Origin: Candidatus Aenigmatarchaeota archaeon
GTDB lineage: Archaea > Aenigmatarchaeota > Aenigmatarchaeia > CG10238-14 > WAMV01
Reading direction: 5' to 3'
Assembly (NCBI GenBank): GCA_015522145.1
Contig: WAMV01000012.1
Span: forward strand, 1-33,496
DNA length: 33,496 bases
Under the pieces are notes generated by a model. That model had not been told where the DNA came from. It saw only the letters and a program-made list of their open reading frames with translations, and did no database searches. Position 1 is the stretch's first letter; every line of letters starts with the position of its first letter. The translations under genes and the position numbers were made by a program. Below, piece by piece: positions 22,419 through 24,759 of this stretch.

Positions 22419-22481
22419 AAAATAATCTGTGTTTTTATCTAAATTTGAAATAATGCCCCCGGTGGGATTCGAACCCACGAC

Positions 22482-23108
22482 CTACGGCTTAGGTTCGACA
22501 GAGAGGAGGGCTCTAATTAAAGGTCTATATTTAGTGTTTACTGATTTATTAAAATAATTTTTATCCAAAAGCTTAAACGGTTTAATTTTATATATGAATT
22601 TTAATGATTCTTGACCATACACTATGACTTCATAGTAATCCCTTCTATTTTTTCTTTTTTCGTTTACGCAAACTAGTTTATGATGAATATTCATTGTCTT
22701 CATGGCTTGTGAGACTAAATCTATTATGGATTTAGATGAGTTAGTAATCTTTATTCTTCTACCTCTTCTAGTACTTCTAAAATCTATAGAACCTTCTGCA
22801 TCAAAGATGCCTCGTAAAAACACACGTGCATATTTTTCCTCTCTTATTAACCTAGCTAGTTCTTTTCTTATTTTTTTGATTTTTTTTACTAATTTCTCGT
22901 CCCTTATACATATGATAATTTCTGGTTTCCAGTTATGCTTTCTCTTTTTTCTTTTATAAATTCGGGTTTTAGATGTGAGTGTGTTTATTAATTTTTTGTA
23001 TTTTGTAGCCAGTGTTCTGTTGGTTGTTGAAATAGCTATAGATTTGCCTAACTCATACCCATCTCCTATGTAATAGCCAGTTATGTTTATTAACAGTTCT
23101 TTTTTCAT
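22482..23108 (-). CDS. LAGLIDADG homing endonuclease (two-motif, I-DmoI-like size)
   Basis: 208 aa. Motif 1 is ITGYYIGDGY and motif 2 is FLRGIFDAEGSI, about 95 residues apart. A GGAGGG Shine-Dalgarno site lies 2 nt before the AUG. The last 3 sense codons and the UAG stop lie in tRNA exon 2. Confidence 0.85.
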   Translation of the reverse strand: MKKELLINITGYYIGDGYELGKSIAISTTNRTLATKYKKLINTLTSKTRIYKRKKRKHNWKPEIIICIRDEKLVKKIKKIRKELARLIREEKYARVFLRGIFDAEGSIDFRSTRRGRRIKITNSSKSIIDLVSQAMKTMNIHHKLVCVNEKRKNRRDYYEVIVYGQESLKFIYKIKPFKLLDKNYFNKSVNTKYRPLIRALLSVEPKP

Positions 23109-23122
23109 AGCCCTCCTCTCTT
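22494..23122 (-). mobile_element. BHB-type archaeal intron carrying a homing-endonuclease ORF
   Basis: The precursor can fold as: 3-nt bulge C32-U33-A; a 4-bp helix (C28-C31 CGGC with intron GUCG at 22496..22499); 3-nt bulge A-A-C34; then a perfect 13-bp helix joining the intron termini (23109..23121 with 22500..22512). Confidence 0.75.
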
Positions 23123-23184
23123 AGGCCGCCGCTCTATCCAGGCTGAGCTACGGGGGCCTAATCAAAAATTAAAAACGTTAGCAT

Positions 23185-24759
23185 TTATTTAAATTTCCTG
23201 TCCATAACAAACCAGAATAAGTAAAGTGGTAAATTTCCTTCATACATAAGCAAATCATTAAACTTTCTTTCATTAAAATTATTTACTGTTTCAAATTCCC
23301 TCCTTAGTTCTTTTATCATATGCTTGCCAATTAAATAGCAAAGCTGATATCCCGGGCTTTTAGTGTATCTTTTTACCTCCGCTAAAGCACCTTCCCTATC
23401 TAGGTAAGCATTCCTAATTAAAAAGTTAACTGCTTGCTTAAAACTCATCCTACCTGTACTTAGTTTTATATCAACAATTACCCTGCAGGCACGCCATATA
23501 GCATCTTTTAGAAAAACAAATTTCTCCTCTGGCTTATTCAAAAATCCTTTTTCGAGCATGTATTCTTCGCAATAATGAGCCCAACCCTCTACAAACTCTG
23601 GTGGACTTAGCAAATGTCTTACATAACTTTTTTGCAATGAAGCACATGCATGCTGCAAATGATGGCCTGGATATGCTTCATGTACCACAGTGTTTTTTAT
23701 GGAAGCGTATGTTAAATGTTTGCCAAGCTTTTGTCTAGGCGTTACAATATATATACCAACTTTGTTTTTTTCAAAAGGTGCAGGTGGAAAATAAGCTGCA
23801 TAAGGAATTAACTTTGTTAAATATGAAGGTGTTTCCATTATAACAAGCTTTTCTCCTTTTGGTAAGGTAAAAAGTTTGTTTCTTCTCAAAAATTCTTTTA
23901 ACTCTTTTACAACTTGTTTATGATATTTCAAAGCTTCTCTGAAAGTTTTTGGTTTGTTATTTTCTAAAATTTTTTCAGCTTCCTTAACAGTCTTGACATT
24001 CATTTCCTTTAGAACCTTTTTCATTTCTTTTTGATATCGCCTAAGATAGTAATTTGCTAAGCTTAACATTTCATCCTTGCTTAAATTTATCAACATTAAC
24101 TGAATTAGTTCATCAAACTCTTCATCACTTAGCCAATATTTCTCGCTCGCTTTTGTTTTTATTTTCTTCAAATGTTCTTTATAGCTTGCTAAACTTTTTT
24201 TAGCTTTGCTAACAATTTCTTCAGCCTTTCTCAAATTTCTAAACTTATTCGCTTTACAAATTTCCAAAATCGTATCTAAAAAGTTCTCTAGCATAGGGAT
24301 GTTTTCCAAAGCTATATCAACCCAGATCTTAACTGGTTTATCAACAGTTTTTTTCATTTGTTCCAAAACTTTGGAAAATTTTTCTATTCTTTTCAAAGCG
24401 CTTCGCATGCGCTTATTGAATGGGGCAAAATCTCTAAAAATAAGTGGAAATAAGGCATCACCTAAAAAGCTCACATCTGGGTCTCTTTCCCACATTCTTA
24501 TTTTCTCTAACCAAAAAAGCTCAAGCCTTAACTCATAAACAGCTGCTAACCTGCTAATTTCTTCATCAAAATTCTTTGTTTCAACACTTTCGAATTTTCT
24601 CAAAAATTCTTTCAGCTTCTTGATTTCTTTCTCTATCGTTTTCTTACTCAAATCAGGCAGCTCAGAATCGTACTTATGAACTCCTAAAAAAGTTGCTAGT
24701 ATTGGATTTTGTTTAACTACATAATCAAAAAATTCTTTTTCCAATTTTCTGAAGCTCAT
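23185..24759 (-). CDS. DUF885 family protein (putative metallopeptidase-like)
   Basis: 524 aa. The HEAYPGHHLQ motif and overall length are typical of DUF885. Confidence 0.7.
   Translation of the reverse strand: MSFRKLEKEFFDYVVKQNPILATFLGVHKYDSELPDLSKKTIEKEIKKLKEFLRKFESVETKNFDEEISRLAAVYELRLELFWLEKIRMWERDPDVSFLGDALFPLIFRDFAPFNKRMRSALKRIEKFSKVLEQMKKTVDKPVKIWVDIALENIPMLENFLDTILEICKANKFRNLRKAEEIVSKAKKSLASYKEHLKKIKTKASEKYWLSDEEFDELIQLMLINLSKDEMLSLANYYLRRYQKEMKKVLKEMNVKTVKEAEKILENNKPKTFREALKYHKQVVKELKEFLRRNKLFTLPKGEKLVIMETPSYLTKLIPYAAYFPPAPFEKNKVGIYIVTPRQKLGKHLTYASIKNTVVHEAYPGHHLQHACASLQKSYVRHLLSPPEFVEGWAHYCEEYMLEKGFLNKPEEKFVFLKDAIWRACRVIVDIKLSTGRMSFKQAVNFLIRNAYLDREGALAEVKRYTKSPGYQLCYLIGKHMIKELRREFETVNNFNERKFNDLLMYEGNLPLYLFWFVMDRKFK
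23186..23193 (-). promoter_or_regulatory. TATA-like box upstream of tRNA-Arg
   Basis: Minus-strand TTTAAATA lies at -36..-29 relative to tRNA position 1 and overlaps the last codons and stop of the upstream DUF885 gene. Confidence 0.3.

Follow-up and report, generated by a model that had tools for sequence, protein, structure and literature searches.

The window analysed here comprises positions 1 to 33,496 of contig WAMV01000012.1 of a Candidatus Aenigmatarchaeota archaeon, and the feature of interest lies on its minus strand. When long introns were allowed, ARAGORN identified a tRNA-Arg(CCU) gene (23157..22454) whose two halves are 629 nt apart, and in silico joining of the exons at position 33/34 yields a canonical 75-nt tRNA-Arg(CCU) fold. 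The intervening intron contains an open reading frame (ORF) for a LAGLIDADG homing endonuclease (P0001), which runs on into the 3' exon (Table 1). A TATA-like box upstream of the tRNA may plausibly represent the sole promoter of the tRNA and the ORF alike. Neither ARAGORN under default settings nor Rfam at its gathering thresholds detected a tRNA in the window.

Table 1. Features of the intron-bearing tRNA-Arg(CCU) gene in the window, and the long introns found at the same site elsewhere.
Feature	Position	Strand	Basis or remarks
TATA-like box TTTAAATA, GGAAA just before	23186..23193	-	candidate, read from the sequence; centre about 32 nt upstream of tRNA nt 1
tRNA-Arg(CCU) 5' exon, tRNA nt 1-33	23123..23157	-	ARAGORN with introns, in silico exon joining
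BHB central helix, 5' strand, exon C28 G29 G30 C31	23125..23128	-	MFE pairing with intron nt 624-627
5' bulge C32 U33 / A, 5' splice site after U33	23122..23124	-	MFE fold, comparison of orthologues
BHB intron, 629 nt, between tRNA nt 33 and 34	22494..23122	-	BHB fold; identical junctions in short ORF-less orthologous introns
h' helix, 5' arm AGAGAGGAGGGCU, 13 nt	23109..23121	-	RNAfold and 13-mer count; holds the SD-like AGGAGG (23117-23112), ends one nt before the AUG
LAGLIDADG homing endonuclease ORF (P0001), 208 aa	22482..23108	-	Pfam LAGLIDADG_3; AUG 23108-23106, UAG 22484-22482
h' helix, 3' arm AGCCCUCCUCUCU	22500..22512	-	most codons of R197-A-L-L-S201; first two Arg bases just upstream, 22514-22513
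BHB central helix, 3' strand, intron GUCG	22496..22499	-	MFE fold, comparison of orthologues
3' bulge A A / C34, 3' splice site	22493..22495	-	BHB rule; GYCGAA/CC junction kept in orthologous introns
tRNA-Arg(CCU) 3' exon, nt 34-73, CCA not encoded	22454..22493	-	sequence reading, ARAGORN with introns, exon joining
Stop UAG = tRNA U43 A44 G45 (exon nt 43-45)	22482..22484	-	sequence reading
L001 long intron, 629 nt			stop 76 nt past the intron end, beyond the tRNA
L003 long intron, 606 nt (3 x 202)	L003:1490-2095		stop at exon nt 36-38, in a different frame
L014 long intron, 607 nt			stop just before the 3' arm
L048 long intron, 612 nt			stop UGA made by central helix and bulge (BHB core)
L050 long intron, 613 nt			stop just before the 3' arm

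In archaea, the BHB motif consists of a 4-bp helix between two 3-nt bulges, each of which is cut after its second nucleotide, and the splice sites in the window were placed by this rule. An unconstrained RNAfold prediction for the whole 704-nt precursor recovers the 4-bp CGGC:GUCG central helix, the unpaired 5' bulge (CU/A; here and below, a slash between sequences marks a splice or ligation junction) and a 13-bp helix. In the 3' bulge, the MFE fold leaves only the first A unpaired, while the second A and C34 are paired in a small exon-2 hairpin; the AA/C bulge is therefore a reading from the BHB rule and the orthologous introns. The intron-side helix h' is a perfect 13-bp helix, and on the exon side only about 2 bp of helix h can be drawn (G27-C and G26-U), which are absent from the MFE fold. 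The motif would thus be of the relaxed HBh' type, as expected at a non-canonical position. The central helix covaries among the orthologous introns: CGGC is paired with GCCG or GUCG in most of them, and an exon CAGC is combined with an intron GCUG in two (L048 and L050), a compensatory change that supports the predicted pairing. No Rfam family match was found in the window, and the structure is that of a BHB, with no self-splicing ribozyme core. The splicing endonuclease EndA (PF01974, 5e-28, contig C1) and the RtcB ligase (PF01139, 4e-174, contig C5) are both encoded in the host genome.

The sequence CCUAAG is present at both intron borders (window 22488-22493 and 23120-23125, minus strand), so that tRNA finders can build a false anticodon loop, as in the readings Ser(ACU) and Leu(AAG). 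The Ser(ACU) call, which ARAGORN returned with introns allowed, places the intron 1 nt off and was rejected in favour of Arg(CCU) on the basis of the BHB rule, the orthologous short introns and in silico splicing. A canonical intron at 37/38, which would give a tRNA-Leu(AAG), was likewise discarded, given the 5-nt variable loop of the tRNA and the lack of any possible BHB at 37/38. With the gene missed by default tRNA finders and by Rfam, tRNA-Arg(CCU) would be scored as absent in such genomes. In the host assembly, which comprises 323 kb and is estimated to be 81% complete, AGG accounts for 28% of the Arg codons. About half of the 30 tRNA genes detected across all contigs have introns, which are 28-58 nt long and in many cases located at non-canonical positions. 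Several intron-bearing tRNAs were given impossible anticodons by ARAGORN (Stop-UUA, SeC-UCA, Ile-AAU) and, consequently, the tRNA set of this genome needs BHB-aware re-annotation.

Across the two junctions, the minus strand reads ...GCGGC CU/A AGAGAGGAGGGCU AUG... and ...AGA GCC CUC CUC UCU GUC GAA/CCU AAG CCG UAG. An earlier sequence-only reading had placed the start of the ORF 15 nt into the intron, and indeed the AUG occupies intron nt 15, behind a 14-nt leader that consists almost entirely of the 5' arm of h'. An in-frame UAA spans the 5' splice junction five codons upstream of the AUG, so that there is no alternative start farther upstream. The same reading held that the 13-bp helix includes a Shine-Dalgarno (SD)-like tract and adjoins the start codon, and that its 3' arm encodes R-A-L-L-S; sequence and RNAfold bear out the former, and the latter is correct except that the first two bases of the Arg codon fall outside the arm. 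The 13-mer occurs exactly twice in the 33.5-kb window, once as the 5' arm and once, as its complement, in the 3' arm, with 0.04 occurrences expected after shuffling. In the folded 704-nt precursor, the probability that the helix is unpaired is about 0, and the arm duplex amounts to -28 kcal/mol.

At its other end, the ORF comprises 205 codons within the intron, followed by P-K-P (CCU AAG CCG) and the UAG from exon 2, which agrees with the proposal that the frame crosses the 3' splice site. The last seven intron codons span the 3' arm, the central helix and the bulge. The Leu-Leu pair in the arm is encoded by CUC-CUC although CUC represents just 3.6% of Leu codons genome-wide, which indicates that codon choice in the 3' arm is dictated by RNA pairing. 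If the intron were circularised, with a predicted junction of GUCGAA/AAGAGAGG, the frame would continue GAA/AAG AGA GGA GGG CUA UGA and encode 210 aa. The two C-termini foretold for the precursor and the circle (...SVEPKP and ...SVEKRGGL, respectively) are therefore both correct as predictions.

The encoded protein matches Pfam LAGLIDADG_3 (2e-20) in two stretches. Its two motifs, GYYIGDG (D16) and LRGIFDAEG (E105), each ending in a catalytic acidic residue, are intact, and G100, F102, D103, E105 and G106 are invariant in the alignment of homologues (A1). An AF2 model (pLDDT 90.6, pTM 0.88) shows the expected two-domain order of alpha-beta-beta-alpha-beta-beta-alpha elements. The closest solved structure, ranked first in a profile search of PDB sequences, is I-DmoI, the endonuclease of the D. 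mobilis 23S rRNA BHB intron. Values of dN/dS among the orthologues range from 0.17 to 0.43. By these sequence measures, the ORF is to be regarded as a bona fide endonuclease gene under purifying selection. The last helix of the AF2 model comprises residues 195-203, and R197-S201, which are encoded by the 3' arm, form part of the fold; this region aligns with a conserved KYRxxLxxLL motif of distant homologues, in which the Leu pair is kept. The exon-coded P-K-P, on the other hand, is modelled as a disordered coil beyond the last helix.

No close homologue of P0001 was found in the 117 other genomes of the order (118 searched in all). The matches obtained across the order are mostly LAGLIDADG domains in long open frames, many of them exceeding 750 aa, and are probably inteins. 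A second LAGLIDADG domain of the host genome (G000:C10:20310-20642), which lies within an 809-aa open frame, is probably an intein as well. A scan of viral contigs gave no match.

Related introns were collected by protein searches and by DNA-pattern searches; the GYCGAA junction pattern misses GCUGAA variants, which were recovered by the protein route. Introns of 16-25 nt that lack an ORF, at least five of them distinct (L010, L011, L012, L016, L018, L019), occupy the same site in the tRNA-Arg(CCU) genes of other archaea, some of which are labelled Aenigmatarchaeota. Their junctions (..GCGGC NN/A...GCCGAA/CCUAAGCCG) are identical to those in the window; this settles the positions of the splice sites and points to a small hairpin intron as the earlier occupant of the site. 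The short and the long introns have in common the insertion site, the GCCGAA/CC 3' junction, the 4-bp central helix and the 3-nt bulges, but the former fold into a hairpin of 3-6 bp whereas the latter exhibit arms of 10-15 bp and a loop of about 600 nt. Two tRNA-Arg(CCU) genes with a short 33/34 intron (L012:760-850 and L016:2930-3010) contain a second small intron after nt 8/9 (GCCCCCGUA-AAUUUUGGGGAA-AGCUCAG).

Five further distinct long introns at 33/34 carry orthologous endonuclease genes, which brings their number to six including the window. The endonucleases of the window and L001 are 49% identical, and both introns measure exactly 629 nt, an equality that may be coincidence. The AUG is located at intron nt 15 in these two and at nt 12 in the other four, and in all six introns it either abuts the 5' arm or pairs within the helix. 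This holds for three unrelated arm sequences, AGAGAGGAGGGCU, AGAGGGAUGUAG and AGGUA(A/G)(G/U)AAC, and purines predominate in the 5' arm of each lineage. In the nt-12 group, the partner of AUGGAA is UUCCAU or UUCCAG, the final sense codons of the frame. The overlap of helix and start codon suspected in the window is thus found again in each of the five further orthologous long introns, and throughout this family the two ends of the ORF constitute the two strands of the splice helix.

The stop codons behave differently. The six frames end at five places (Table 1), and in L003 and L048 this results from a 1-nt deletion relative to the nearest relative, located at an older stop following ...FQ. 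Position 43 of the tRNA, which supplies the U of the UAG in the window, varies between A, C and U among orthologous tRNAs, so that the exon stop is specific to its lineage. It would be an accident of an ORF that lost its own stop, with the exact C-terminus being incidental. Consequently, the claim that the ORF is locked into the splice structure stands for the interlock between ORF ends and helix and has to be given up for the exon stop, which is neither designed nor conserved.

Distant homologues of the endonuclease (28-33% identity) were found in tRNA-Trp(CCA) genes with two introns (L007:1415-2310, L025:1113-1996, L027:700-860). Intron 1 (742-749 nt, at 30/31) bears the endonuclease and has a GCCGAA 3' junction, and intron 2 (65-70 nt, at the canonical 37/38 position) contains GAUGA/CUGA-like boxes. 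In these endonuclease introns, about 45 nt separate the 5' arm from the start of the ORF. The tRNA-Arg(CCU) and tRNA-Trp(CCA) genes share GAGCGGCGG beside the insertion point, which suggests that the endonuclease family moved between tRNA genes. A further homologue is located upstream of another multi-intron tRNA (L005:1400-2224 and L006:1100-1960). The L005 sequence has an in-frame TGA and may be a decaying copy, and in L006 a duplicated tRNA 5' fragment (GCCUCGGUA...) flanks the ORF on both sides. The only indirect pointers to site-specific cleavage of an intron-less allele and to homing would be the sporadic spread of the element and the occurrence of this endonuclease family in another tRNA gene.

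The sequence-only reading had further assigned a GGAGGG SD site to the helix. An AGGAGG tract is indeed present in the arm, but GGAGG at -8 to -4 lies about 4 nt nearer to the AUG than the preferred SD-like position of the genome, whose own signal is modest (a GGTGA peak at -9, and GAGG at -12). As the host assembly contains no 16S rRNA, the anti-SD had to be inferred, and the canonical CCUCCU tail was taken from a relative of the same order (L035). With this tail, the 22-mer upstream of the ORF in the window yields -10.6 kcal/mol, which puts it in the uppermost 4% when compared with the genes of this genome and in the uppermost 0.6% when compared with random 22-mers; the corresponding value for L001 is -8.4 kcal/mol. 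In the other four long introns (L003, L014, L048, L050), the anti-SD duplex energy is no better than random. Among the six introns, a strong SD is confined to that of the window and its closest relative and does not qualify as a general feature. Since only 14 nt of intron precede the AUG, any SD must sit in the arm; what is notable is the SD-like character of this arm in two lineages. The GGAGG may equally mirror the GC-rich Leu-Leu codons, and selection for an SD is plausible. In one relative of the same order (L031; G144:C15), the 16S 3' end reads ...GGAUCACUCAGC instead of ...GGAUCACCUCCU, and the canonical anti-SD appears to be missing.

In self-splicing group I introns, ORFs were described to overlap with structural elements ("core creep"), ribosome binding sites (RBS) to be sequestered in hairpins, and ribosomes to impair splicing, for example in the phage T4 td intron encoding I-TevI (Edgell, Chalamcharla and Belfort, 2011; PMC3073962). 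The intron in the window resembles this class in that the ends of its ORF feed the splice helices, and its residues beyond 203 are variable, in line with the prediction that overlapping C-terminal residues are variable and dispensable (PMC3073962). In contrast to group I introns, it is spliced by proteins via a BHB and not as a ribozyme, its sequestering helix is the splice-site helix itself and is made by ORF ends 600 nt apart, and the conflict between translation and splicing is here a predicted one. By analogy, the element may work like the class with "core creep" and a sequestered RBS without being a member of it.

In the model that we propose, an old short BHB intron at 33/34 of tRNA-Arg(CCU) would have gained an I-DmoI-like LAGLIDADG gene in its hairpin loop, and this gene would have been compacted until both of its ends ran into the splice structure. 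In the lineage of the window, no stop would have remained before the splice site, so that the frame runs to the first in-frame stop, at tRNA nt 43-45. The ORF would lack a promoter of its own and would be transcribed as part of the pre-tRNA. With the only plausible promoter located upstream of the tRNA, the ORF would first become available on the nascent pre-tRNA, some 600 nt before the 3' arm is made. Ribosomes might load only before the 3' arm, 600 nt downstream, has been synthesised, or during breathing of the helix. Formation of the 13-bp helix would then hide the SD and the AUG and build the BHB for cleavage by EndA, upon which RtcB would join the exons; initiation would thereby be self-limiting.

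No single molecule can be translated and present a BHB at once, since a ribosome on the last 10 or so codons has to open the 13-bp arm together with the 4-bp central helix and the 3' bulge. Of the competition or ordering between translation and splicing that had been suggested for this locus, the mutual exclusion holds by geometry; the ordering is a deduction. Folding of the nascent RNA revealed no free SD in the window copy: before the 3' arm exists, the SD tract is predicted to be engaged by upstream sequence of the 5' exon, with the acceptor 5' strand as the probable partner. An open co-transcriptional phase is thus something that we infer for this copy and that the prediction does not support. 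Further points that count against the model are the SD position, 4 nt nearer to the AUG than the genome optimum, the weak SD-likeness in four of the six introns, and L001, whose precursor frame has no stop inside the tRNA and fits poorly with the precursor as the normal template there. Taken as a whole, this account of origin, compaction and self-limiting translation, which amounts to a BHB equivalent of "core creep" and RBS sequestration, is the one towards which we incline, if only by a modest degree.

The template for translation might instead be the excised intron after circularisation by RtcB, as has been suggested for the 23S rRNA intron of Desulfurococcus mobilis, whose circle is cited as coding for the 194-aa endonuclease (PMC11724312). 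The UGA would then overlap the AUG (AUGA), the product would be 210 aa long and the exon stop would be irrelevant. Archaeal tRNA introns are circular once excised, large ORF-bearing rRNA introns persist as circles (PMC3326292), and RtcB is encoded in the host genome. Moreover, the circular frames of the window and L001 would both run for 5 further codons to an identical AUGA overlap and encode 210 aa each, and L001, whose precursor frame overruns the tRNA, would favour the circle as template. However, the UGA in AUGA is an automatic consequence of a conserved Lys at codon 2, and both arms lie inside the intron, so that a circle keeps the 13-bp helix, with the SD and AUG still paired in the predicted circular fold. 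The L003 intron, with a length divisible by three, would form a circle without any stop and favours the precursor as template, while the three introns with an internal stop (L014, L050, L048) are uninformative in this respect. Overall, we regard translation from the circle at this locus as unlikely. The broader proposition that tRNA-intron endonucleases are translated from RtcB-ligated circles, as natural circular archaeal mRNAs whose C-terminus and stop are created by the ligation junction, seems more doubtful still; if it were true, L003 would represent an endless frame open to rolling-circle translation.

The overlap could also be devoid of regulatory meaning, with an endonuclease that is rarely or never made in the host and an SD-like tract that is just the complement of GC-rich codons needed by the long-range helix. 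Indeed, GGAGG mirrors CUC-CUC, whose Leu pair distant homologues retain; the SD match stays at the random level in four of six introns, and its spacing in the window is sub-optimal. The sporadic occurrence of the element, with no close homologue in 117 other genomes of the order, and the in-frame TGA of the distant homologue L005 point in the same direction. Against this reading stand dN/dS values of 0.17-0.43, intact D16 and E105, a confident fold prediction, 5' arms that are rich in purines in every lineage, and an SD:anti-SD energy that places the window within the strongest 4% for its genome and the strongest 0.6% for random 22-mers. This explanation is therefore considered quite improbable.

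The closest known systems are the BHB introns of archaeal rRNA genes, such as the I-DmoI intron of Desulfurococcus mobilis 23S rRNA and those of Pyrobaculum. They have in common with the intron in the window the BHB, EndA, the ligase and a circular intron, the LAGLIDADG class, an ORF that fills nearly the whole intron and a circle discussed as a possible mRNA (PMC11724312, PMC3326292). Here, by contrast, the host is a tRNA gene with a non-canonical 33/34 insertion in the roughly 0.4-Mb genome of a DPANN-like archaeon, and the ORF extends past the 3' splice site into exon sequence. The tRNA-Trp intron with a box C/D RNA in Haloferax and Sulfolobus is likewise an archaeal tRNA intron that has a functional product and forms a stable circle (PMC3326292), but this product is a guide RNA and not a protein, so that no conflict with translation arises. 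A review of tRNA introns from 2014 contains neither "homing" nor "open reading frame" (PMC4090602), and an endonuclease gene in an archaeal tRNA intron appears to be an undescribed arrangement, subscription literature lying outside the search.

Combining a single helix and a single ORF with one essential tRNA, the locus offers a compact natural test case for translation from the pre-tRNA as opposed to the circle in archaea. The self-limiting model would extend a principle of self-splicing introns, in which genes creep into RNA structure and a hidden RBS protects splicing, to the protein-spliced introns of archaea.
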